A DNA stretch of 64,000 nt from Escherichia coli (GCF_003991155.1 NZ_CP031293.1); one strand, 5' to 3'; shown: positions 3,435 through 63,765, counted from the first letter of the stretch. Notes: generated by a model from the sequence alone, not told the origin. Translations and numbers: made by a program.

Positions 3435-4838
3435 ATGTCTGACCATAATCCACTGACATTAAGACTGAATCTGCGGGAAAAAATCGCCTATGGTATGGGC
3501 GACGTCGGTTCGAATTTAATGCTCTGCATCGGTACTCTGTATCTCCTCAAATTTTATACCGATGAATTAGGGATGCCTGCTTACTATGGCGGGATTATCT
3601 TTCTGGTGGCGAAGTTTTTTACCGCATTTACCGATATGCTCACCGGATTTTTACTCGACTCGCGGAAAAATATTGGGCCTAAAGGCAAATTTCGTCCCTT
3701 TATTTTATATGCAGCGGTTCCGGCGGCGTTAATTGCAACGCTCCAGTTTATCGCCACCACCTTTAGTTTGCCGGTTAAAACGACGATTGCCACCGCACTG
3801 TTTATGATGTTTGGACTTTCATACAGTCTGATGAACTGCTCGTATGGTGCGATGATCCCGGCCATTACCAAAAACCCCAATGAGCGCGCGCAGCTCGCGG
3901 CTTACCGCCAGGGTGGTGCAACCATAGGGCTATTGATTTGTACCGTGGCGTTTATTCCGTTGCAGTCGCTTTTTTCTGACTCAACCGTCGGTTATGCCTG
4001 TGCGGCACTGATGTTCTCCATTGGCGGCTTTATTTTTATGATGCTGTGCTACAGAGGCGTCAAAGAGCATTATGTGGACACGACGCCAACCGGACATAAG
4101 GCCAGTATTCTCAAATCATTTTGCGCGATATTTCATAATCCACCTTTGCTGGTATTGTGCATTGCTAACCTGTGTACTCTGGCGGCATTTAATATCAAAC
4201 TGGCGATTCAGGTCTATTACACCCAGTATGTGCTAAATGATATTAATTTATTGTCGTGGATGGGATTCTTCAGTATGGGATGCATCCTCGTCGGCGTATT
4301 ACTGGTGCCATTAACTGTAAAATATTTTGGTAAAAAACAGGTTTATTTAGCTGGCATGGTGCTGTGGGCGGTTGGTGATATCCTGAATTATTTCTGGGGA
4401 AGTAACTCTTTCACTTTCGTCATGTTCTCTTGTGTCGCCTTTTTTGGCACGGCCTTTGTAAACAGCCTGAACTGGGCACTGGTGCCAGATACCGTAGATT
4501 ACGGTGAATGGAAAACCGGTATTCGTGCCGAAGGTTCTGTTTATACCGGTTATACCTTCTTTCGTAAAATTTCTGCCGCACTTGCTGGCTTCTTGCCAGG
4601 CATTATGCTGACGCAAATAGGTTATGTTCCCAACATCGCGCAAAGTGATGCGACATTACAGGGTTTGCGTCAGCTCATTTTTATCTGGCCTTGTGCACTG
4701 GCAATTATTGCTGCATTGACGATGGGATTCTTTTACACACTCAATGAAAAACGGTTTGCACTGATTATTGAGGAAATTAACCAACGCAAAAATAAAGAAA
4801 TTGAGACAGAAGAAAAAACGGCTTCCGTAACGTTATAA
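3435..4838 (+). CDS. yihO: GPH-family transporter (sulfoquinovose importer in K-12)
   Basis: ORF 3429..4838; ATG at 3435 preceded by AAGGAG; paralogous to yihP. Confidence 0.85.
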   Translation: MSDHNPLTLRLNLREKIAYGMGDVGSNLMLCIGTLYLLKFYTDELGMPAYYGGIIFLVAKFFTAFTDMLTGFLLDSRKNIGPKGKFRPFILYAAVPAALIATLQFIATTFSLPVKTTIATALFMMFGLSYSLMNCSYGAMIPAITKNPNERAQLAAYRQGGATIGLLICTVAFIPLQSLFSDSTVGYACAALMFSIGGFIFMMLCYRGVKEHYVDTTPTGHKASILKSFCAIFHNPPLLVLCIANLCTLAAFNIKLAIQVYYTQYVLNDINLLSWMGFFSMGCILVGVLLVPLTVKYFGKKQVYLAGMVLWAVGDILNYFWGSNSFTFVMFSCVAFFGTAFVNSLNWALVPDTVDYGEWKTGIRAEGSVYTGYTFFRKISAALAGFLPGIMLTQIGYVPNIAQSDATLQGLRQLIFIWPCALAIIAALTMGFFYTLNEKRFALIIEEINQRKNKEIETEEKTASVTL

Positions 4839-7055: not shown

Positions 7056-8036
7056 TTAGTGGTTCAGAAGATGGTTTGCCTCTTGTTTGATTTGTTGTAG
7101 TACGTTACGCACATGATTTATCTGATTAATTGCATCTTCTTTTTCTTTACGTAACCGCGCATCCAGTAAATGATTTTCTGGCAATGGTGTTTCACTCATC
7201 TGGCGATAAGGGATCCACGGATTATCATCTTCGTCTTCAAAGCGGAACGCCGGCGCATAGTAATCAACCTCTTCTTCCAGGCCATATGCCGTCACCTGCG
7301 GCTCATCATCACCCAGGCATATAAGGTGCGTTAATAACGCTTTGAACGGCATATCACCCTGACCTGAAATACAGGCTTTATGACCCAGGCCACCCGGTTC
7401 TTTAACGATCAAGGCATCTTTGATATGGACCTGGGTAATATGCGGTGCCATCGTTTTTAAAGCGTCGATGGGATGCTCATTTGCATTGATCATGTTCGCA
7501 AAATCAAACAGTAAGGAAAGAGATTCCATCTCACTTTCTTTGACCAGCGACACCAGCTCATGACTTTTTAAATCTTCATGCTGCTCGATCGTAAAAGTCA
7601 GGCCGCTGTCCTGATACGTTTCCCGTACATAGGCAATGTCGTTAGCGATAATCGATAATACATCGCGCAAATTACCTTCATAACGCGGATAAAAACGTAC
7701 GGAGGATGCCCCAGTTTTCAACGCGATGGCGACGGCTTCGTCAATAGATTTTTTATCTGAGGCGCTGGTTTCAATATGAATATCAAGGTTCAGACGGCGG
7801 GCTTTATCCCCAAAGGCAGAGAGTTCTTTATCGTCCATATTACCAAGAGAAAAACGCTCTCCATCCAGAACATGGATTTTGACGCCACGTAGATTATTTT
7901 CACTTGCGATATCAAGTAAATCAGCAGGCAACACTCTTTCCAGTCGCATATTTAAATGAAAGGCATAAGCATGTAAATAAAGAGGAAGAGTGTCGACACG
8001 TTGTAGAATCTTTCTTGCGTTATTTATTGTCACCAT
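7056..8036 (-). CDS. yihM: Sugar-phosphate isomerase/epimerase-like (TIM-barrel) protein
   Basis: 326-aa ORF; conserved synteny with yihL and yihN. Confidence 0.8.
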   Translation of the reverse strand: MVTINNARKILQRVDTLPLYLHAYAFHLNMRLERVLPADLLDIASENNLRGVKIHVLDGERFSLGNMDDKELSAFGDKARRLNLDIHIETSASDKKSIDEAVAIALKTGASSVRFYPRYEGNLRDVLSIIANDIAYVRETYQDSGLTFTIEQHEDLKSHELVSLVKESEMESLSLLFDFANMINANEHPIDALKTMAPHITQVHIKDALIVKEPGGLGHKACISGQGDMPFKALLTHLICLGDDEPQVTAYGLEEEVDYYAPAFRFEDEDDNPWIPYRQMSETPLPENHLLDARLRKEKEDAINQINHVRNVLQQIKQEANHLLNH

Positions 8037-19207: not shown

Positions 19208-19452
19208 AAGAAAAAAGGCGACAGATTACTCTGTCGCCTTTTTTCCTGACTCATAACCCTTAACGGGTCTTACAATCCTTGCAGGCCGCCAACACACCCT
19301 GTTTTTCCATTAGCCGGAACAATCCGTGTTGATTCCATTTCCGTTTAATTACGTCTCCGGACGTTTGTCTTCCTGACAATCCTCTGTCTTCGCCTCCTGG
19401 CGCTCCTGACCCTCATCCTGAGTCATTGTTCCTGTTAGCGTCCTCGCTCTAT
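19208..19452 (-). ncRNA. csrC: CsrC sRNA (CsrA-sequestering RNA)
   Basis: Minus-strand sequence ATAGAGCGAGGACGCTAACAGGAACAATGACTCAGGATGAGGG... with many GGA motifs, ending in hairpin ggcgacagagtaatctgtcgcc plus U-run; lies in the yihI-engB spacer as in K-12. Confidence 0.75.
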
Positions 19453-28420: not shown

Positions 28421-28489
28421 AGTAATGCTCCTTACTCTTGAGACAGACACGTTAGCAGGGTCAATCCCACAATAAAAGAGGCGATATCG

Positions 28490-29074
28490 GTGAATCTGAT
28501 GACGACGATAACAGGCGTTGTGCTGGCGGGCGGTAAAGCCAGACGAATGGGCGGCGTAGATAAAGGATTGCTTGAATTAAACGGCAAACCATTATGGCAA
28601 CATGTCGCTGATGCGCTTATGACGCAGCTTTCTCACGTCGTGGTTAATGCTAATCGTCATCAGGAAATCTATCAGGCAAGCGGTCTGAAAGTGATTGAAG
28701 ATTCACTGGCGGATTACCCAGGCCCTCTGGCAGGAATGCTTTCAATAATGCAGCAGGAAGCGGGTGAGTGGTTTTTGTTTTGTCCGTGCGATACGCCTTA
28801 CATTCCCCATGATTTAGCCTCCCGGCTTACTCATCAGCGCAAAGATGCGCCTGTCGTGTGGGTCCACGACGGTGAACGCGATCACCCGACTATTGCTCTG
28901 GTAAACCGCGCAATTGAGCCTTTATTACTGGAATATCTGCAAGCAGGAGAACGCCGGGTTATGGCATTTATGCGTCTGGCTGGCGGTCATGCGGTTGATT
29001 TCAGCGATCGTAAAGAGGCATTTATAAACGTGAATACGCCAGAGGAGCTTGCCCGATGGCAGGAAAAACGATGA
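28490..29074 (+). CDS. mobA: Molybdenum cofactor guanylyltransferase
   Basis: 194-aa ORF with GTG start; [11 protein letters not shown] nucleotide-binding motif. Confidence 0.93.
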
Positions 29075-52794: not shown

Positions 52795-52913
52795 AACGCC
52801 TCCTGACGCAACAACTTACCCGCACAAAATAGAATTGTGCTGTACAAACGTCCAGTTTGAAAGAAGTTTCCTGCGAGGCGCTACGCAAAACGATCGTTAA
52901 TTTTCATTATTTT

Positions 52914-52949
52914 ATCCCACAATATGAGATGGAGTTTATATTGTGGGAT
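52914..52949 (+). promoter_or_regulatory. Perfect 12-bp inverted repeat, candidate IclR-type operator
   Basis: ATCCCACAATAT-(12 nt)-ATATTGTGGGAT, 62 bp upstream of the IclR-family gene start. Confidence 0.5.
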
Positions 52950-53010
52950 ATATCACCTTTTCCCCACGTCATTATGTGGAACACTTCAGCAATATCATCA
53001 GGAGAAACGT

Positions 53011-53778
53011 ATGGCAGAAACCTCTTCAACCACCGCAGGCGCACAAACGTTATTACGTGGACTGGCGGTTCTTAATGCTGTTTATAACGGCTGCCATGAC
53101 CTAAAAAGTATCGGCGAGTTCACCGGCACGACCCGGAGCACAACCCATCGTTTAGTCACCGTTCTGGTGGAACAACGCTACCTGCGCCATGTCCCAACGC
53201 AGGGCTACCAACTGGGTGCCAAACTGATCGAATTCGGTGCCAGAGCACTGGAAAGCACCTCGCTGTACGAAATTGCCCAGCCCGTTTTGCAACGCCTTGC
53301 CCGTTACACCCTGGACACCGTGCATCTGGGGATCGTTGAAGGCGACGAAGTGCTGTATCTGGAGAAGATCAACAGTCAGCGCGGGCTGGAAATGCGCTCA
53401 CGCCCAGGCCATCGCATGCCACTGGCAATCACCGGCATCGGCAAGGCATTGATCCTCAACCGAACAGAAGAAGAGTGGCGCACGCTGTTTAAGACCTGTG
53501 GTGATGAAACAAAACTGGGCGCATTTATTCAGAACATGCGTCGTTATGCCGCCAGTGGTTTTGCTTTTGATCTGGAAGAGAACGAGCCGACTATCCGTTG
53601 CGTTGCAGCGCCGGTTTACAACGCCCGGGATGAAATTGTGGCGGCTATTTCTGTCGCCAGTACCACCACGTATATGTCGCTGGCGCGTCTGGAAGAACTG
53701 GCACCTTACGTCAAATCCTGTGCAGAAGAGATATCCGCTGAACTGGGCTGGGGTAAGCACGTCCGCAAAGATAAATAA
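53011..53778 (+). CDS. IclR-family transcriptional regulator
   Basis: ORF 52924..53778; ATG at 53011 preceded by AGGAG; N-terminal wHTH (LRGLAVLNAV...) and C-terminal effector domain typical of IclR. Confidence 0.8.
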   Translation: MAETSSTTAGAQTLLRGLAVLNAVYNGCHDLKSIGEFTGTTRSTTHRLVTVLVEQRYLRHVPTQGYQLGAKLIEFGARALESTSLYEIAQPVLQRLARYTLDTVHLGIVEGDEVLYLEKINSQRGLEMRSRPGHRMPLAITGIGKALILNRTEEEWRTLFKTCGDETKLGAFIQNMRRYAASGFAFDLEENEPTIRCVAAPVYNARDEIVAAISVASTTTYMSLARLEELAPYVKSCAEEISAELGWGKHVRKDK

Positions 53779-53801
53779 ACCATGATTAAAGGAAACGACT
53801 A

Positions 53802-54806
53802 ATGCCGGGAGCACCCTCATTTATTGCCCTGGACTGGGGAACGTCATCGCTTCGGGCATGGCGTTTTGGCGAATCACCAAATCCACAAGAAAAACGTGAA
53901 TTCCCCTGGGGGATCATGAAATTACCCTCCCAGGCAGCAACACGTGAGGACGCTTTCCACGATACGTTTTTACGTGTCTGCGGCGACTGGCTGGCACAAA
54001 CCCCATGCCCGGTACTGGCTTGCGGCATGCTCGGCAGTGCGCAAGGGTGGCAACCAGCAGCTTATTTACCTTGCCCGGTCACTCTCGAGGGTCTGGCGAA
54101 GCAGTTGACGCCTGTTATCCACCAGCAGCAGACAATGCTGCACATCATTCCTGGCGTGATTAAAGAAGGTGAAATGCCCGAAGTGATGCGTGGCGAAGAG
54201 ACACAAATCTTCGGTGCTATCTCGATGGAACCGGCCCTGCAAAACGCGATCCATCAGGGTATGCCAGTGCTGATAGGCTTACCCGGCACACATGCGAAAT
54301 GGGCAGTAGTTGAAAACAACACCATTACCGATTTCCGAACCTTTATGACGGGCGAGTTATTTGATGTTTTATCCCGCCATTCGATTCTCGGTGCCACCAT
54401 GCATCCTGGAGATGAACCGCACTGGGATGCCTTCACCCACGGGCTGACAGCAGCACAAGAGCATCATCAGACCGGATTATTATCGACGCTGTTTTCGACC
54501 CGTTCGCGCCTGCTGACCAGTAATCTTACGTCGTCCTCGCAGGGGGATTACCTTTCCGGATTACTGATAGGCCATGAATTATGTGGTCTGGCATCCAGTT
54601 TGCTACGTGATTTACCCGCCACAACACCGATCGCCTTAATCGGTAGCGCAAATCTGAACAGCCGCTATTCACAAGCATTCAACCACGTTTTTCCCGACAG
54701 ACAGATACACGCCATTCCCAATGCCACTGAACAGGGATTATGGCGAATCGCCCACGCTGCCGGGTTACTGTCCACCAACGCCAGGGAATGTACCCATGCC
54801 ATTTAA
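53802..54806 (+). CDS. 2-dehydro-3-deoxygalactonokinase (DgoK)-family sugar-acid kinase
   Basis: 334-aa ORF; motifs shared with DgoK as recalled: IALDWGTS-LRAW, VMRGEETQ, PGTHAKW, DFRTFMTGEL, LSGLLIG; RBS AAAGGAAA upstream. Confidence 0.7.
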   Translation: MPGAPSFIALDWGTSSLRAWRFGESPNPQEKREFPWGIMKLPSQAATREDAFHDTFLRVCGDWLAQTPCPVLACGMLGSAQGWQPAAYLPCPVTLEGLAKQLTPVIHQQQTMLHIIPGVIKEGEMPEVMRGEETQIFGAISMEPALQNAIHQGMPVLIGLPGTHAKWAVVENNTITDFRTFMTGELFDVLSRHSILGATMHPGDEPHWDAFTHGLTAAQEHHQTGLLSTLFSTRSRLLTSNLTSSSQGDYLSGLLIGHELCGLASSLLRDLPATTPIALIGSANLNSRYSQAFNHVFPDRQIHAIPNATEQGLWRIAHAAGLLSTNARECTHAI

Positions 54807-55425
54807 TACGCTTTTGCAAAAAACCGGTTTAGTCGCCATTTTACGCGGTGTGAAACCGGATGAGATTGTCGCCATCGGTGAAAAACTGTACGCCGCCGGA
54901 TTCCGCCTGATTGAGATTCCTATGAACTCGCCGGAGGCGTTGCAAAGTATCAGTTTACTGCGCGACGCCCTGCCTAAGGACTGCCTGGTCGGAGCCGGAA
55001 CTGTGCTTTCGGTAGAGCAGGTGGTTGCGGTTAAAGAGGCTGGGGGCCAGATTATCGTGATGCCGCATTGCGATACTGCGGTGATCCGTCGCGCCCGTGC
55101 GCTGGGTATGTATTGTGCGCCTGGCGTCGCCACGCCCACCGAAGCCTTTGCTGCCATTGAACATGGTGCTAATGCCATCAAGCTGTTCCCAGCTGAACAA
55201 ATTACGCCAGAAGTTACCAAAGCCTGGCGTGCGGTTATTCCACAATCCGTTCCGATGTTACCGGTTGGCGGTATCACACCGGAAACCATGGCGCGTTATC
55301 TGAGCCACGGCGCAAACGGCTTTGGCCTCGGTTCTGCGCTATATCACCCCGGCATGACGCCAGAGCAAGTCTATGAAAATGCAGTACTGTTTATGAACGC
55401 ATGGAACAATTTAAATAGCAACTAA
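54796..55425 (+). CDS. KDPG/KDPGal (DgoA/Eda)-family class I aldolase
   Basis: ORF 54721..55425; probable start MPFNTLLQKTGLVAILRGV at 54796, overlapping the kinase 3' end by 11 nt; aldolase-family motifs (IEIPMNSP, GAGTVL, PGVATPTE, VGGITPE). Confidence 0.7.
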   Translation: MPFNTLLQKTGLVAILRGVKPDEIVAIGEKLYAAGFRLIEIPMNSPEALQSISLLRDALPKDCLVGAGTVLSVEQVVAVKEAGGQIIVMPHCDTAVIRRARALGMYCAPGVATPTEAFAAIEHGANAIKLFPAEQITPEVTKAWRAVIPQSVPMLPVGGITPETMARYLSHGANGFGLGSALYHPGMTPEQVYENAVLFMNAWNNLNSN

Positions 55426-55449
55426 CTGATAAATAAGGATATAAAAGCA

Positions 55450-56424
55450 ATGATAAAACATCTTACCTTACCGAAAAAAATGGCTGCAATGGTACTTCTT
55501 GCAGGCGCTGCCCTCAGCATTGCGCCTGTACAGGCAGCCTCCTACCCAACCAAACAGATCGAGTTAGTCGTTCCCTACGCTGCCGGAGGCGGTACGGATC
55601 TGGTTGCCCGTGCCTTTGCTGATGCCGCCAAAAACCATTTACCCGTCAGCATCGGGGTTATCAATAAACCTGGCGGAGGCGGTGCTATCGGCCTGAGTGA
55701 AATCGCCGCTGCCCGCCCTGGCGGTTACAAAATTGGTTTAGGCACAGTTGAACTGACCACCCTTCCCAGCCTCGGAATGGTGCGTTTTAAAACCAGCGAC
55801 TTTAAACCCATTGCCCGTCTGAATGCGGATCCGGCTGCTATCACAGTCCGTGCCGATGCGCCGTGGAATAGCTATGAAGAATTTATGACTTACGCCAAAG
55901 CGAATCCCGGAAAAGTACGCATTGGTAACTCAGGCACCGGAGCTATCTGGCATCTGGCGGCAGCTGCACTGGAAGACAAAACGGGCGCAAAGTTTTCTCA
56001 TGTCCCGTATGACGGCGCAGCCCCTGCCATTACAGGCCTGTTAGGCGGGCACATTGAAGCGGTTTCCGTAAGCCCAGGAGAAGTTATCAACCATGTGAAT
56101 GGCGGCAAGCTGAAGACACTGGTAGTGATGGCGGATGAGCGAATGAAAACCATGCCTGACGTCCCGACGTTAAAAGAGAAAGGCGTTGATCTCTCCATCG
56201 GCACCTGGCGCGGCCTGATTGTGTCGCAAAAAACGCCGCAGGATGTGGTGGATGTTCTGGCAAAGGCAGCAAAAGAGACGGCTGAAGAGCCTGCATTCCA
56301 GGATGCACTGCAAAAGTTGAATCTCAACTATGCATGGCTTGACGCTGCCAGCTTCCAGACCCAAATCAGCGAACAGGAAAAGTACTTTGACGAGTTGCTG
56401 ACTCGCCTGGGCCTGAAAAAATAA
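55450..56424 (+). CDS. tctC: Tripartite tricarboxylate transporter (TTT) periplasmic substrate-binding protein, TctC/Bug family
   Basis: 324-aa ORF; signal peptide; resembles TctC/Bug proteins. Confidence 0.8.
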   Translation: MIKHLTLPKKMAAMVLLAGAALSIAPVQAASYPTKQIELVVPYAAGGGTDLVARAFADAAKNHLPVSIGVINKPGGGGAIGLSEIAAARPGGYKIGLGTVELTTLPSLGMVRFKTSDFKPIARLNADPAAITVRADAPWNSYEEFMTYAKANPGKVRIGNSGTGAIWHLAAAALEDKTGAKFSHVPYDGAAPAITGLLGGHIEAVSVSPGEVINHVNGGKLKTLVVMADERMKTMPDVPTLKEKGVDLSIGTWRGLIVSQKTPQDVVDVLAKAAKETAEEPAFQDALQKLNLNYAWLDAASFQTQISEQEKYFDELLTRLGLKK

Positions 56425-56437
56425 ACCTGAGGTACGG

Positions 56438-56947
56438 TTGATGAACACAAAACAGTCTGTTGCTCAACTCGCCGTACCGCACCGCAAGCGCCTTTCATCA
56501 ACGATGGTGGTGGCGCTGTTACTTTGTGTGGTTGCTGGCGCGGTGATGATTAATGCCGCTGATTTTCCAGCAACGGCCATTGAAACGGATCCCGGTGCAA
56601 GTGCCTTCCCTACTTTCTATGCCTGCGCTCTGATTGTGCTCGCTGTCTTGCTGGTGATACGCGATCTTTTGCAGGCAAAACCAGCCTCTTGCGCCAACGC
56701 ACAGGAAAAACCGGCATTCAGGAAAACGGCAACAGGAATTGCGGCAACCGCGTTTTATATTGTGGCGATGAGCTACTGCGGTTATCTCATTACTACTCCT
56801 GTTTTCCTCATCGTCATTATGACGTTGATGGGCTACAGGCGATGGGTACTCACACCGGGTATTGCGCTGCTGTTAACGGCAATCCTCTGGTTGCTGTTTG
56901 TCGAAGCGTTACAGGTGCCATTGCCTGTCGGCACATTTTTCGAATAA
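56438..56947 (+). CDS. tctB: TTT small membrane subunit TctB
   Basis: 169-aa hydrophobic ORF between tctC and tctA. Confidence 0.7.
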   Translation: MMNTKQSVAQLAVPHRKRLSSTMVVALLLCVVAGAVMINAADFPATAIETDPGASAFPTFYACALIVLAVLLVIRDLLQAKPASCANAQEKPAFRKTATGIAATAFYIVAMSYCGYLITTPVFLIVIMTLMGYRRWVLTPGIALLLTAILWLLFVEALQVPLPVGTFFE

Positions 56948-56959
56948 CAGGGGCCAGCA

Positions 56960-58450
56960 ATGTTTGAAAGTGAACTTTTAACTCAGGGTTTTTCGACATT
57001 ACTCAATAATCCTCAGGCGCTGCTGTTTGCCACTTTTGGGGTGATGCTGGGTATTGTGATTGGCGCTTTGCCTGGTCTGACAGCGACCATGGGTGTGGCG
57101 ATTTTGCTGCCTTTCACCTACGGCATGGAGCCTGTTTCTGGCTTGTTGATGATTTGCGGCGTCTTTTTTGGTGGCGTCTACGGTGGTTCTATCACCGCAA
57201 TTTTGCTCAAAATTCCCGGAACGCCTGCCGCCGCAGCCACCGCTATTGATGGTTATGAGCTGACGAAACAGGGAAAAGCAGGGCTGGCATTGAGTGCCGC
57301 CACGTTCTCTTCCTTTAGTGGCGGAACGCTCAGCATTATCGTGCTGATGTTTCTCTCTCCGGTACTTGCCAGTTGGGCGCTGAAATTTAGTGCCTCGGAG
57401 TCCTTCGCCCTGGCAACCTTCGGACTGAGCATTATTGCCAGTATTTCCGGTGAGTCGCTGATTAAAGGGCTGATTGCCGGGGTTGGCGGATTGCTGATCG
57501 CAACGATAGGCCTTGATCCAATGGGCGGTTTTCCACGGTTTACAGGTGGATTTGTGGAGCTGATGAATGTGCCATTTATCCCGGTGATGATTGGTTTATT
57601 TGCTGCTTCAGAAGCATTCCGCTCTATGGAGCAAAACCAGCAAATTCGTCAGGGGGCGAAGGTGGCTATCGGCAGTCTGTTACTGCCCTGGCAAACACTA
57701 CGCCGCATTGCATTAACCATTTTGCGCTCATCAGGATTAGGGGTTTTTATCGGCATGATCCCCGGTGCGGGGGCGGATATTGCAGCTTTTGTTGCCTATA
57801 ACGAAACTCGTCGTTTCAGTAAGACACCAGAAAACTTTGGTAAGGGTGAAATTAAAGCTGTGGCCTCCTGTGAGGCAGGCGCGAATGGCTGCACCGGTGG
57901 CGCATTGTTACCTATGCTGACGCTGGGGATCCCTGGCGATGCGGTAACCGCCATCATGCTGGGCGCGTTAACGTTACAGGGAATGCAACCAGGCCCGCTG
58001 ATGTTTACCGACCACGGCGATATGGTTTATACACTGTTTGTCGGCATGATCTTTTGTTACTTCATGCTGCTAGTTCTTGGACTGCTCTCTTTGAAAGTCA
58101 TCGGTAACGTGGTGAAGATCCCCGGCAATATTCTCACACCGATGATCCTCGCACTTTGTGTGGTCGGGACTTATGCGTTGAACAATAGCCTGTTTGATGT
58201 TGGCATTATGCTGATTGCAGGCGTGGTGGGCTATTTCATGCAGAAAGGAGGATATCCGGCATCACCCGTAGTGCTGGCATTGATTATGGGCCCGATGGCA
58301 GAAAGTAATTTTCGCCGTGCGCTGTCGCTTTCAGGGGGTTCACTGGACTTTCTGTATACCCGACCGGTCACTCTGGCATTGCTAACTCTGGCAGCCTTTA
58401 CGCTACTGACGCCAATAATCCGCAAAATAATGCGTTTACGGCGTCAGTAA
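56960..58450 (+). CDS. tctA: TTT large permease subunit TctA
   Basis: 496-aa polytopic membrane ORF with Gly-rich TM segments. Confidence 0.8.
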   Translation: MFESELLTQGFSTLLNNPQALLFATFGVMLGIVIGALPGLTATMGVAILLPFTYGMEPVSGLLMICGVFFGGVYGGSITAILLKIPGTPAAAATAIDGYELTKQGKAGLALSAATFSSFSGGTLSIIVLMFLSPVLASWALKFSASESFALATFGLSIIASISGESLIKGLIAGVGGLLIATIGLDPMGGFPRFTGGFVELMNVPFIPVMIGLFAASEAFRSMEQNQQIRQGAKVAIGSLLLPWQTLRRIALTILRSSGLGVFIGMIPGAGADIAAFVAYNETRRFSKTPENFGKGEIKAVASCEAGANGCTGGALLPMLTLGIPGDAVTAIMLGALTLQGMQPGPLMFTDHGDMVYTLFVGMIFCYFMLLVLGLLSLKVIGNVVKIPGNILTPMILALCVVGTYALNNSLFDVGIMLIAGVVGYFMQKGGYPASPVVLALIMGPMAESNFRRALSLSGGSLDFLYTRPVTLALLTLAAFTLLTPIIRKIMRLRRQ

Positions 58451-58457
58451 CTGATAT

Positions 58458-58487
58458 CGCTCCCCGAAGTTGGGGAGCGTTTTTTTA
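58458..58487 (+). terminator. Rho-independent terminator ending the accessory operon (abuts the udp stop)
   Basis: cgctccccgaagttggggagcg followed by TTTTTTT. Confidence 0.8.
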
Positions 58488-59249
58488 TTTCAGCAGACGA
58501 CGCGCCGCTTCCACCACGATTTTCACCGCATGGCTTTCGGTTTGTTTCATCGTCTCAGCATTCGGGATCTCTTGCTGGGTGCGGTTAACGATAACCCCCG
58601 CTACCATACCGGCACGCAGGCCCTGACTTGCACACATGGTCAGCAGGGTTGCAGATTCCATTTCATAGTTCATTACGCCCATCGCCTGCCACTCTTCCAT
58701 AGAACCTTTAAAGTGACGAACTACGCGACCAGAGTAAGTATCGTAACGTTCCTGACCAGGGTAGAAGGTATCAGAAGAAGCTGTCACGCCAACGTGAGTC
58801 GTCGCGCCAATGGATTTCGCAGCTTCAACCAGCGCAGTCGTACATTCGAAATCAGCGACAGCCGGGAATTCCAGCGGTGCGAAGTGCAGGCTCGCACCAT
58901 CCAGACGAACAGACGCCGTGGTAACCAGGACATCGCCAACATTAATATGCGGCTGAATAGCGCCCGTTGTGCCGATACGCAGGAAGGTGCGAATGCCCAG
59001 CTGTGCCAGCTCTTCAACAGCAATAGAGGTAGACGGGCCGCCGATACCGGTAGAGCAGACGATAACAGGTTTACCATCCAGCTCTGCACGCCAGGTGGTG
59101 AATTCGCGATGAGATGCCAGCTTAACCGGCTTATCCATCAGCGCGGCGATCTTTTCCACACGATCCGGGTCGCCAGGGACGATGGCAAGCGTAGCCCCTT
59201 GTAAATCGTTTTTAGTGAGGCCGAGATGAAAAACATCAGACTTGGACAT
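58485..59249 (-). CDS. udp: Uridine phosphorylase
   Basis: ORF 58485..59255; start [11 protein letters not shown]. Confidence 0.96.
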
Positions 59250-60576: not shown

Positions 60577-61245
60577 ATGACGCAATCCATTTTTCAGGCT
60601 CAACCCTTTGAATTACCTTTTGATCCGCGCACAACTGCACTGGTCATGATCGACATGCAGCGTGACTTTGTCGAAGCAGGGGGCTTCGGTGAGGCACTGG
60701 GCAATGATGTTTCACTGGTACGCACGGCTATCGCACCATGTACAGAGGTGCTGGCAGCCGCACGTCAAAAAGGAATTATGGTTATTCATACTCGTGAAGG
60801 CCATCGTGCAGACTTAAGCGACTGCCCGCCAGCCAAACTGACGCGCGGCGGAAAAACCTTTATTGGTGAACCAGGACCGATGGGACGCATTCTGGTCAGA
60901 GGTGAAGCAGGTCATGACATCATTCCTGAACTGTACCCGGTGGCAGGCGAACCGGTGATTGATAAGCCTGGCAAAGGCGCGTTTTATCAAACCGACTTAC
61001 ATCTGATTTTGCAAAACCACGGTATCAAGACGCTGATAGTTTGTGGTGTTACAACCGAAGTTTGCGTAACCACCACCGTGCGCGAAGCAAATGATCGTGG
61101 CTATGAATGCATTATCCCGGAAGATTGTGTCGGCTCCTATTTCCCGGAATTCCAGAAATACGCCCTCGAGATGATCAAAGCACAAGGTGCCATTTTCGGT
61201 TGGGTTACTGATTCCAAAGCCATTATTGCAGGCCTGGAAGGCTAA
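60577..61245 (+). CDS. Isochorismatase-family cysteine hydrolase (amidase-like)
   Basis: 222-aa ORF; Asp in MIDMQRDF, Lys in KPGKGAF, Cys in VCGVTTEVCV: the D-K-C triad pattern of this family. Confidence 0.75.
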   Translation: MTQSIFQAQPFELPFDPRTTALVMIDMQRDFVEAGGFGEALGNDVSLVRTAIAPCTEVLAAARQKGIMVIHTREGHRADLSDCPPAKLTRGGKTFIGEPGPMGRILVRGEAGHDIIPELYPVAGEPVIDKPGKGAFYQTDLHLILQNHGIKTLIVCGVTTEVCVTTTVREANDRGYECIIPEDCVGSYFPEFQKYALEMIKAQGAIFGWVTDSKAIIAGLEG

Positions 61246-61250
61246 CACCG

Positions 61251-62111
61251 ATGGTACAGGTTACGCTTTGCGCATCGTCGTTGGGATATCTTTTCCCGCA
61301 GAATGAAACGCAAGATTTACGTCTACATAGCGCTTTTAAACATGCGGTAAATCTGTATTCAGACGCGGGAACATTCATCACTCTGTTGTGTGCGCAAACG
61401 TATCTGAATCTCCCTGATGCAGCCAGAGTCTGGCTACCTGAATGTTGGGACTGGCGAAGAGAGATTGCCCATTCAGATCCCATTCAGTTAACCCCAGGCT
61501 TACTGCGGACACCTCGATTTTGTGTGGCGCTCGAAAACGCAACGCTCTGGCAGTCGCCATTTGTGGGGGGAATGCTGACACTTGAGGCATTCCCTTTGGT
61601 TTTCCAGCACTACCCAACGATGGCATCGCAACGGCTTTTATTTTGTCTGGAACATAACGTTCAAAGCACATTGCACCTGCCGGATAGTCTCACGCACCAG
61701 GGATTAGCGATTATGGAGCATCCAGATGCGCTGGAACGCCAGGTGCCACAACTGATCGGCTTTGGTAAAGGCTTAACGCCCGATGGAGATGACTATTTGT
61801 TGGGCTATCTGGCAGCACTCTGGTTATGGCAACTCCCTGCACCACTTGCCGATCATCAATACCGGTTGCAGCAGGTAATTGATCAACATGCGCACAACAC
61901 CACGGATATCAGTCGTCATTATCTGGAGCGTGCGCTTCAGGGACATTTTTCAGAACCGATTTGCCAGTTACTCGCACAACTGGTTGGGAGTGCATCGGCA
62001 ATGACAATCGCATCCTGTGCAGAACAGGTCATGCAATTTGGCGCAACGTCAGGAGTAGATTGCCTTGCAGGAATGCTGCATGGCTTTCGAACCCTGAACA
62101 CCATAAATTGA
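61251..62111 (+). CDS. Conserved hypothetical protein, possibly DUF2877 (YahE/YlbF-like)
   Basis: 286-aa ORF starting 5 nt after the hydrolase stop; GFGKGLTPDGDDYLLGY motif; assignment by position next to the FdrA-like gene, not verified. Confidence 0.45.
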   Translation: MVQVTLCASSLGYLFPQNETQDLRLHSAFKHAVNLYSDAGTFITLLCAQTYLNLPDAARVWLPECWDWRREIAHSDPIQLTPGLLRTPRFCVALENATLWQSPFVGGMLTLEAFPLVFQHYPTMASQRLLFCLEHNVQSTLHLPDSLTHQGLAIMEHPDALERQVPQLIGFGKGLTPDGDDYLLGYLAALWLWQLPAPLADHQYRLQQVIDQHAHNTTDISRHYLERALQGHFSEPICQLLAQLVGSASAMTIASCAEQVMQFGATSGVDCLAGMLHGFRTLNTIN

Positions 62112-62205
62112 TTTCAACCTTTTCTCCCGTAGCCCGTTTATGGGGCTACACGGGGATGCTTTGCCCGAATTTTGCTATCGGGCGGAATGAAACAGGCGTA
62201 ACAGC

Positions 62206-63765
62206 ATGAAAGTTAAATATAAAGTTTTCAGTAATCTTTATCAGGACTCAGTTTCTCTGATGCAGATTTCCGCGCAAATCAGCAAGTTGCCCGGTATTCA
62301 ACAGGCCTCGGTCGTCATGGGAACACCCAATAATCTCGAGCAATTGAGCGATGCGGGTCTGGGTAACGAAATCAACGCCAGTCCCAATGATTTAGTGATT
62401 GCAGTCATGGGTGAAGAAGATATTTGCAATGAAGCACTGGTACTGGCCCAGCAACGTCTGACCAGCAAACCCGATGATGAAACGGATAGTGGCATTAAAA
62501 CACCGGAAAAGGTCAGCCTGGAAATGGCACTGGAAGCCGAGCCCGAAGCCAACCTGGCACTCATTTCTGTACCGGGAGACTACGCCGCCGCCGAAGCAAT
62601 TAAAGCGTTAAACCTCGGAATGAACGTGATGATGTTCAGCGATAACGTCAGTATCGTGCAGGAAAAATCCATCAAAACGCTTGCCCGAGAACGTCAGCGC
62701 ATCGTAATGGGACCTGACTGTGGAACCGCCATTGTTAACGGCATTCCGTTAGGCTTCGCTAATGTGGTGAAACGCGGAGCAATTGGTGTTATTGGCGCGT
62801 CAGGCACCGGGCTACAGGAAGTGACTTGCCGAATCGACCAGCTCGGAGCGGGTATTTCTCAGGCGTTGGGAACAGGCGGACATGATCTCAGTGAAGAGAT
62901 TGGTGGAATATCGATGCTCTTCGCTTTAGATGCGCTGGCGCAAGACGATGAAACTCGCGTGATTGTGCTTATTTCAAAACCGCCTTCACCGATCGTTGCC
63001 CGGACTATTCTGGAGCGTGCCGAGGCTTGTGGAAAACCCGTGGTGGTGAATTTCCTCGGTGCGAATCCGCATGATCTGGCACGTCCCAATATCACCGCGG
63101 CCACCACACTTGCCAGCGCCGCAAATATCGCCGTGGCGTTACTGAATGATCAACCACTTCCGACTATCGAGACCGAAATTTCCTGCGACGATCTCACAAT
63201 GTTACAAAACGCCTGCCAGCGCCTGCCAGCCCATCGCCAGGCGATACGCGGTGTTTTCGCCGGAGGAACCTTCTGCTACGAAGCGCAACTTATCTGCCAA
63301 CAAAAGGGATTCAGCGCAGCCTCCAATACGCCAGTTGCGGGTAATCGTGCTCTGGCAAATATCTGGCAAAGCGAAGATCACACGTTGATCGATATGGGCG
63401 ACGATGATTTCACCCGTGGCAAACCGCATCCAATGATCGACCCGACTCTGCGCAATCAACGTCTGCTCAACGAACTCAACGACTCACACACTGCCGTCGT
63501 GTTATTCGACCTGGTACTTGGTTATGGCGCTTCCACGACGCCTGCCAGCGAATTACTGGACCAACTTTCACACATCGACATGAATAACGCACCGTTGCTG
63601 ATTGCGCACGTTTGCGGAACGGAAGCTGATCCGCAAATACGCAGTCAGCAGATAAGCGCACTACAAAATGCAGGGGTCATCATCGCCAGCAGCAATGCAC
63701 AGGCGGCGTTATGGGCCAGCACCGTTGCACAGACTCAGTTGCAGAAAAAGGGGCTAAACGCATGA
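62206..63765 (+). CDS. FdrA-family protein (CoA-binding, succinyl-CoA synthetase alpha-like fold)
   Basis: 519-aa ORF; motifs recalled from FdrA: QDSVSLM, VMGTPNN, NVMMFSDNV, MGPDCGT, IGVIGASGTG, PHPMIDPTLRNQ. Confidence 0.75.
   Translation: MKVKYKVFSNLYQDSVSLMQISAQISKLPGIQQASVVMGTPNNLEQLSDAGLGNEINASPNDLVIAVMGEEDICNEALVLAQQRLTSKPDDETDSGIKTPEKVSLEMALEAEPEANLALISVPGDYAAAEAIKALNLGMNVMMFSDNVSIVQEKSIKTLARERQRIVMGPDCGTAIVNGIPLGFANVVKRGAIGVIGASGTGLQEVTCRIDQLGAGISQALGTGGHDLSEEIGGISMLFALDALAQDDETRVIVLISKPPSPIVARTILERAEACGKPVVVNFLGANPHDLARPNITAATTLASAANIAVALLNDQPLPTIETEISCDDLTMLQNACQRLPAHRQAIRGVFAGGTFCYEAQLICQQKGFSAASNTPVAGNRALANIWQSEDHTLIDMGDDDFTRGKPHPMIDPTLRNQRLLNELNDSHTAVVLFDLVLGYGASTTPASELLDQLSHIDMNNAPLLIAHVCGTEADPQIRSQQISALQNAGVIIASSNAQAALWASTVAQTQLQKKGLNA

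Follow-up and report, generated by a model that had tools for sequence, protein, structure and literature searches.

A tandem IclR-type operator predicted upstream of an accessory dgo-type operon in Escherichia coli

Introduction

About a quarter of complete Escherichia coli genomes (1456/5426), among them BL21-type/B strains and ExPEC-type strains such as ST95, carry a 5.6-kb accessory islet between rmuC and udp with the gene order iclR-dgoK-dgoA-tctCBA, and a long perfect inverted repeat lies ahead of its first gene. The locus raises the question of what this repeat is: a binding site for the regulator encoded next to it, with consequences for the promoter of the operon, or something else, such as a nucleic-acid hairpin or a scar of the insertion. 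The question is addressed here with one copy of the islet in a 64-kb stretch of E. coli chromosome (the window) and with orthologous loci. Each of the 1456 carrier genomes has exactly one copy of the 56-bp operator region. The islet has been noted once, in APEC O1, as an insertion of 5 kb and 6 ORFs between udp and rmuC to which no function was assigned (PMC3349570), and beyond this mention no experimental work on the islet or its regulator was found in the literature.

Two published systems frame the analysis. IclR-family operators have been sorted into two main motif types, of which group 1 includes WTTYCRYW3RYGRAAW, and tandem sites 18-22 nt apart were reported for 94 orthologous groups, an arrangement read as a tetramer whose dimers share one face of the DNA (Suvorova and Gelfand 2021; PMC8222616). 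The core dgoRKADT operon is autorepressed by DgoR, the GntR/FadR-type product of its first gene, and is subject to class II activation by CRP (PMC6003448).

Results

The islet is an insertion with clear limits: in islet-free genomes the match to the window ends at 52890, and in an alignment with a K-12 derivative it takes the place of about 40 bp of spacer, with the udp terminator of K-12 among them. To its left lie ubiB, ubiJ, ubiE and rmuC and to its right udp, all on the minus strand (Table 1). The gaps within the six-gene block measure -11 to 24 bp, and this tight packing leaves 52795-53010 as the only room for a promoter; the initial annotation, which had placed the repeat in the sole intergenic space available for the operon promoter, is right in this respect, as no other non-coding stretch precedes the operon. 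The products are a kinase, an aldolase and, from tctCBA (55450..58450), a tripartite tricarboxylate-type (TTT) transporter, and a galactonate dehydratase gene is absent. Islet DgoK is 34 per cent identical to the core DgoK of the same genome, and islet DgoA 45 per cent identical to the core DgoA. The substrate of the islet may be a 2-keto-3-deoxy acid that is imported directly, or galactonate that is dehydrated by the core DgoD.

Table 1. Positions of the islet, its genes and the predicted regulatory elements in the window
Feature	Coordinates	Strand	Remarks
Accessory islet with operator and operon	52891..58490	+	Inserted between rmuC and udp
Inverted repeat, predicted footprint of the tandem operator	52913..52950	.	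13-nt perfect arms, 12-nt spacer
IclR box 1 (strong), predicted	52914..52930	.	ATCCCAC-AAT-ATGAGAT; imperfect 7-3-7 palindrome, centre 52922
Linker between boxes	52930..52933	.	Hypervariable among Escherichia alleles
IclR box 2 (weak), predicted	52933..52949	.	AGTTTAT-ATT-GTGGGAT, centre 52941
CRP-like site	52942..52957	.	TGTGG-GATATA-TCACC; 8/10 core positions, centre 52949.5
Predicted extended -10	52977..52985	+	TGgAACACT; reading of the alignment, inferred
Shine-Dalgarno sequence	53000..53004	+	AGGAG, 6 nt 5' of the iclR start codon
IclR-family regulator gene	53011..53778	+	255 aa, operon gene 1; RefSeq; Pfam HTH_IclR, IclR_C
dgoK-like 2-dehydro-3-deoxygalactonokinase gene	53802..54806	+	RefSeq name; Pfam DGOK in orthologous loci
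dgoA-like 2-dehydro-3-deoxy-6-phosphogalactonate aldolase gene	54796..55425	+	NCBIfam NF006600, 320 bits vs cut-off 207
tctC	55450..56424	+	RefSeq name; Pfam TctC in orthologous loci
tctB	56441..56947	+	RefSeq name; Pfam TctB in orthologous loci
tctA	56960..58450	+	RefSeq name; Pfam TctA in orthologous loci

Some further details of the surroundings may be recorded here. The right islet junction falls at the udp stop codon (junction regions 52869-52891 and 58451-58491), and Udp thereby gains one C-terminal Lys (254 aa vs 253 aa). A hairpin of the islet's own, CGCTCCCCGAAGTTGGGGAGCG followed by T7, lies at 58458-58486. Past udp and ysgA, the stretch 60577-63765 codes for a cysteine hydrolase and has two more ORFs (286 aa and 519 aa); it may be part of a further variable region.

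The sequence at 52914-52949 reads ATCCCACAATAT-GAGATGGAGTTT-ATATTGTGGGAT. The perfect 12-bp palindrome that had been described there is present, and is even one nucleotide longer in each arm, with 100 per cent complementarity between 52913-52925 and 52938-52950. When the perfect inverted repeats of the whole window were ranked (arms of at least 11 nt, spacers of at most 30 nt), it came second in length and was alone in having a spacer above 8 nt, the other six, with loops of 4-8 nt, resembling terminators. Dinucleotide-preserving shuffles of the window produced arms of at least 12 nt with a 9-30-nt spacer in 6.7 per cent of cases and arms of at least 13 nt in 1.7 per cent, and the shuffles put the chance expectation within the 216-bp rmuC-iclR intergenic region at 1.4e-4 to 5.6e-4. 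Chance does not account for the repeat. From its end to the annotated start codon of iclR (53011) there are 61 bp. The longest perfect inverted repeat of the window, at 19210-19245 (GAAAAAAGGCGACAGA-N4-TCTGTCGCCTTTTTTC), has A-runs/T-runs at the outer ends of its arms and looks like a bidirectional intrinsic terminator.

Only 23 bp separate the left islet boundary from the start of the repeat, which thus travels with the islet, and so short a distance would suit a scar or terminal repeat of the insertion. No copy is found, however, at the right islet junction or elsewhere in the window, and the repeat also occurs in loci whose genes sit in other genomic contexts; a chance palindrome, for its part, would have to be set against an expectation of about 1e-4 in the intergenic region. 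The probability that the repeat is either a scar or an accident is accordingly negligible.

Comparison with orthologous loci resolves the 12/12/12 palindrome into two tandem boxes of 15-17 bp, TCCCA-N5-TGGGA, which are the probable recognition units and whose centres are 19 bp or about two helical turns apart. The outer half-sites are near consensus and the inner ones degenerate (TGAGA in box 1, GTTTA in box 2); in box 2 only the outer half-site, TGTGGGAT, comes near consensus. It is the identity of the outer half-sites in the present allele that gives rise to an apparent 12-N12-12 palindrome. Box 1 fits the published WTTYCRYW3RYGRAAW with C replacing T at position 3 and at the mirror position, and box 2 fits the published group-1 consensus in its outer half only.

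The symmetrised matrix used to score the boxes rests on ten boxes from outside Escherichia, which makes the E. coli site a test case and no part of the training set. Box 1 (ATCCCACAATATGAGAT) is the top match of the 64-kb window at 18.8 bits, the runner-up reaching 10.9 bits. Box 2 (AGTTTATATTGTGGGAT) scores 4.5 bits, where the 99.9th percentile of the window is 3.0, and is the only site besides box 1 to exceed 3 bits in the intergenic region. A second strong box was found neither in the 64-kb window nor in the 50 kb with the core dgo operon. The initial annotation had seen no second copy in the window and had suggested a regulon confined to this operon. The former holds for perfect copies, since the 12-mer half-site has no second one in the 64-kb window and only a 1-mismatch copy at 28464; the latter agrees with the scans of the window and of 50 kb around the core dgo operon.

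The imperfect copy, at 28464-28480 (ATCCCACAATAAAAGAG), is the second-best matrix match of the window (10.9 bits), lies just upstream of a GTG-initiated ORF at 28490, has no second box beside it, and probably arose by chance. Cross-regulation of the core dgoRKADT operon was considered and set aside, the best score in the dgoR promoter of the islet-bearing genome being 3.4 bits.

Variation among natural alleles separates the boxes from the symmetry. The 56-bp operator region is identical in 845/1456 genomes and differs at one or two positions in 608, a class that makes up about 42 per cent of islet carriers. In the sampled allele of this class (AZ159) a C-to-T change in the left arm gives ATCCCATAATAT, accompanied by a change in the linker; the arm change falls at a position that the motif tolerates, and because the right arm is unchanged it is uncompensated. 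Perfect symmetry is allele-specific and is not conserved even within E. coli. The linker reads TGGA, TGAA, TAGA, CCTA, CAGA or CTGT among Escherichia variants. A 7-sequence enterobacterial alignment has TCCCA-A, G-GA, TTTAT, GG-A and TCACC as its invariant columns, with diverging flanks, and in distant orthologues the boxes persist while the complementarity between the arms is lost. Boxes that persist, combined with arm changes that go uncompensated, argue for protein-binding sites and against a hairpin.

That the repeat works as a nucleic-acid hairpin, be it a terminator or attenuator, an RNA element or a DNA cruciform, is hardly credible for this and other reasons, even though the repeat as RNA would fold at -20.3 kcal/mol (z-score -4.9). 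No terminator was called at the repeat and no T-run adjoins it, no plus-strand gene lies upstream to be terminated, and an Rfam scan of it returned only sub-threshold noise with no family at threshold. Arm changes are uncompensated both in the 608-genome allele and in a further E. coli locus (L003), where the altered sequence is CATTAT, and the distant orthologues keep the boxes without the pairing of the arms.

Orthologous upstream regions have a 15-17-bp box in place of the long palindrome, with a weaker second box about 20 bp on. The strong box is found once per 8-15-kb locus in all iclR-first enterobacterial, Alcaligenaceae and Collimonas loci, upstream of the orthologous regulator gene or operon; the taxa are Escherichia, a further enteric, Phytobacter (TCCCACATATTGGGA), Pseudocitrobacter, Klebsiella spallanzanii (TCCCATATATAGGGA), Brenneria (TCCCTATATGTGGGA), Achromobacter, Bordetella and Collimonas. 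The same box, TCCCACATATAGGGA, occurs in locus L082, in Achromobacter and in Bordetella. Among loci with a scoreable second box, 17/18 have it at 19-20 bp. Only five Burkholderiaceae loci score a box at the same threshold, likewise upstream of the regulator gene; most loci of this family, including most of those from Paraburkholderia and Caballeronia, stay below it. What these have instead is a related pair, TCCCAATAT...ATATTGGAGA, 21-22 bp apart, which was recognised by eye only and which the matrix captures poorly.

Loci of the Serratia odorifera type (L092-L094, about 1580-1720 and 7345-7500) have two paralogous IclR genes flanking dgoK-dgoA-tctCBA, their products being 53 per cent and 61 per cent identical to the E. 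coli regulator. The box pair and a CRP-like site stand before the first IclR gene/dgoK operon only, and not before the second IclR gene. A second DGOK gene and an Fe-ADH gene lie divergent from the first IclR gene in these loci.

The comparative evidence bears out the original proposal of a candidate autoregulatory IclR operator and refines it to two boxes: the repeat is very probably a cognate IclR operator, and the fuller reading, in which it serves the islet's own regulator, an orthologue of the D-galactonate IclR regulators of beta-proteobacteria, is quite probable. The low score of box 2 and the many Paraburkholderia and Caballeronia loci below the matrix threshold speak against it. With iclR in first place in the operon, whatever control acts through the repeat is autoregulation. 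The palindrome might instead be bound by another protein, either CRP alone or an unrelated host regulator, its position next to an IclR gene being a coincidence, and the right arm does hold a CRP-like half-site, TGTGG. The left arm and box 1, however, lack a CRP-like partner, the motif fits the IclR group-1 consensus, and the TCCCA-N5-TGGGA pair tracks the IclR subfamily over three orders, with differing neighbours and no shared host factors, all of which make such a coincidence very unlikely.

A protein identical to the islet regulator carries PF09339 (HTH_IclR) and PF01614 (IclR_C). Named NCBIfam equivalogs, including BhcR, KdgR, PcaR/PcaU, IclR and AllR, all score below their cut-offs against the islet regulator (BhcR 143/350; KdgR, NF011671, 129.7/275; IclR 93/380; AllR 75/406). 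An operator of the KdgR regulon was rejected as a candidate, given that the regulator is no KdgR equivalog (NF011671, 129.7 bits vs the cut-off of 275). The closest solved structures are T. maritima TM0065 (1mkm) and KdgR, with E ~1e-22. Residues S43, T44, H46 and R47 of the recognition helix are invariant in 14 orthologues, which fits the conserved motif.

Close homologues at 61-73 per cent identity occur in a few Enterobacterales, and a large set at 53-57 per cent identity in Burkholderiaceae, Alcaligenaceae and Collimonas, one of them annotated as 'D-galactonate regulator'. The regulator gene of Bordetella hinzii is divergent from dgoK, which is followed by a galactonate dehydratase equivalog, and that of Paraburkholderia nodosa precedes dgoK, dgoA and a dehydrogenase gene. 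These dgo-type neighbours of the orthologues place the E. coli regulator in an IclR subfamily tied to De Ley-Doudoroff (galactonate) genes.

A CRP-like site, judged against TGTGA-N6-TCACA, overlaps box 2 in the right arm by 8 bp. In 7/7 Enterobacteriaceae loci an 8/10 site of this kind is centred 60.5-62.5 bp 5' of the ATG with TCACC invariant, where about 0.09 CRP-like 8/10 sites are expected by chance per 216 bp (an estimate). The equivalent enteric sites read TGTGC-N6-TCACC, and Brenneria has a related site too. The distance from the box 2 centre to the CRP-like centre is 8.5 bp in Escherichia vs 17.5-18.5 bp in other genera, and this shorter distance appears in the alignment as a 10-column gap, the fragments of locus L082 and Klebsiella spallanzanii having 9-10 bp more; the Escherichia TGTGG is built from the outer half-site of box 2.

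All seven enteric sequences have a -10-like hexamer 21-22 nt past TCACC (AACACT, AATACT, AAAGAT, CAAAAT or CAGAAT), preceded by TGn in four of them. The proposed E. coli -10, AACACT, matches at 3/6 positions and leans on the TG extension. Counted from the predicted start near 52992, box 1 would fall at about -70, box 2 at about -51 and the CRP-like site at about -42.5; this last position, for which the class II reference is near -41.5, depends on the weak predicted -10. In enterics other than Escherichia the boxes would fall near -60 and -80 and would precede the CRP-like site. A consensus scan of the region called no plus-strand sigma-70 promoter, as expected for an activator-dependent promoter, though this result also speaks against the model, as do the 3/6 match of the -10 and the 8/10 match of the CRP-like site. 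The balance of these observations tips slightly towards a class II CRP site that overlaps the operator.

Two other promoter placements were discarded. A sigma-70 promoter inside the operator (-10 TATATT or TATTGT, -35 CCCACA) matches at only about 7/12 positions and would set the conserved CRP-like site at the start point, and CATTAT at 52970-52975, taken as the -10, is not conserved beyond Escherichia and would set CRP at about -32. On the minus strand a promoter-like ATGATA-16-CATAAT (52971-52998, 9/12) points from the iclR leader toward the operator and rmuC; about 0.7 matches of this kind are expected in the region by chance.

Discussion

The direction of control may be judged from what the weaker box overlaps. 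In Achromobacter and Bordetella the weak box lies over the -35 (TTGAGA) of a 10/12 promoter-like match that faces dgoK, and in Collimonas the hexamer overlapped by the weak box is TTGACA; shuffles give 0.0-0.7 promoter-like matches of this beta-proteobacterial kind. Given that a near-consensus promoter needs no activator, a weak box on its -35 implies repression, and the overlap between E. coli box 2 and a CRP half-site implies competition with an activator. There is reason to think, with a fair degree of confidence, that the islet regulator acts as a repressor.

The predicted mechanism would run as follows. One dimer would bind each box and, at the 19-bp spacing, both would lie on the same DNA face as a tetramer. 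In the uninduced state the tetramer would occupy 52914-52949 and would cover the left half of the CRP site (52942-52957). This site would drive a weak promoter of class II, whose extended -10 would be 52977-52985 and whose start would fall near 52992. Occupancy would block the CRP-dependent activation of iclR-dgoK-dgoA-tctCBA, the synthesis of the regulator itself included. A sugar acid, for which 2-keto-3-deoxygalactonate and D-galactonate are likely candidates, would release the repressor, and cAMP-CRP would then activate the promoter.

It is conceivable that the same cognate operator serves a regulator of the opposite sign, an activator or co-activator that recruits CRP or RNA polymerase together with the sugar acid. 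IclR-family activators exist (MhpR, PobR and PcaU), the boxes are situated upstream of the predicted core promoter in Escherichia (about -51/-70) as in other enterics (about -60/-80), and that core promoter looks weak. Such a role is nevertheless unlikely. The beta-proteobacterial weak box overlaps the -35 of a 10/12 promoter that needs no activator, and the 8-bp overlap of box 2 with the CRP half-site in Escherichia means that both proteins could hardly bind together. An activator encoded by the first gene of its own target operon would, moreover, need basal expression.

The difference in spacing between Escherichia and other enterics invites a further reading, one that is put forward tentatively and with the odds somewhat against it: a 9-10-bp deletion in Escherichia, about one helical turn, may have fused the weak box to the CRP site. 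On this reading TGTGGGA (52942-52948) would be shared by the repressor, as its outer half-site, and by CRP, as its left one, and anti-activation from upstream, the arrangement suggested for other enterics, would have given way to direct competition in which either one protein or the other is bound. The perfect 12-bp symmetry would be owed to the same A-to-G change that completed TGTG. If true, the locus would show in compact, natural form how one indel can rewire a promoter, on an islet that perhaps takes up a 2-keto-3-deoxy sugar acid directly by way of a TTT transporter, an unusual trait for E. coli.

An IclR-family tetramer on an operator of roughly 40 bp is reportedly seen in the TtgV-operator complex of Pseudomonas putida. 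The TtgV repressor is said to bind as a dimer of dimers over about 36-42 bp with unequal sub-sites, features that the islet model shares; its operator reportedly overlaps the -10 and -35 of the target promoter and its effectors are said to be aromatic compounds, in both of which it is unlike the islet. TtgV is only a distant homologue of the islet regulator (E = 4e-11). The characterised repressors KdgR, IclR, AllR and YiaJ of E. coli K-12 have the same fold and the same type of AT-centred palindromic box, and the scores of the islet regulator, far below those equivalog cut-offs, mark out a distinct subfamily with a box sequence of its own.

The closest published operators belong to alpha- and beta-proteobacterial genes: ATCCCATATatTGGGAT is paired with gTttCtTtaTgTGGGAT 20 bp away in a supplementary list, with example pairs given for AZC_2272/2273, M446_4911/4912 and Mnod_6621/6622 (PMC8222616). 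These operators resemble the present one in the box itself, which is almost the same in sequence (ATCCCATATatTGGGAT vs ATCCCACAATATGAGAT here), in a weaker second box about 20 bp off, and in lying upstream of, or divergent from, an IclR gene (PMC8222616). The islet operator differs in its 19-bp spacing, in having the strong box distal to the gene, and in the CRP-like site over the weak box; the published sites are alpha-/beta-proteobacterial, and the likeness is one of sequence between two sets of computational predictions. The site type and its architecture are already known, and what is new is the assignment to the E. coli islet.

The core dgoRKADT operon offers a functional parallel. Both are regulator-first operons of kinase, aldolase and transporter genes for the same pathway, although autorepression and CRP control of the islet are predictions. 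The core operon differs in having a regulator of an unrelated family with an unrelated operator and no IclR box in its promoter, and the islet differs in having no dehydratase and a TTT transporter instead of DgoT.

For the uncharacterised accessory operon of roughly a quarter of complete E. coli genomes, these results provide a concrete regulatory model. They define the key bases, namely the half-sites of box 1 and TCACC, and link the islet regulator to the IclR-type galactonate regulators of beta-proteobacteria. The model could help to identify the substrate of the islet and could supply a sugar-acid-responsive switch for strain engineering; the current understanding of IclR-family regulation is left unchanged. 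Finally, one natural variant may be mentioned: in E. coli SCPM-O-B-8794 (L003) the regulator gene at 4001-4651 encodes a shortened protein (P0005, 217 aa vs 255 aa) downstream of an operator whose left arm is altered (CATTAT), and this shortened regulator may be a natural loss-of-function allele.
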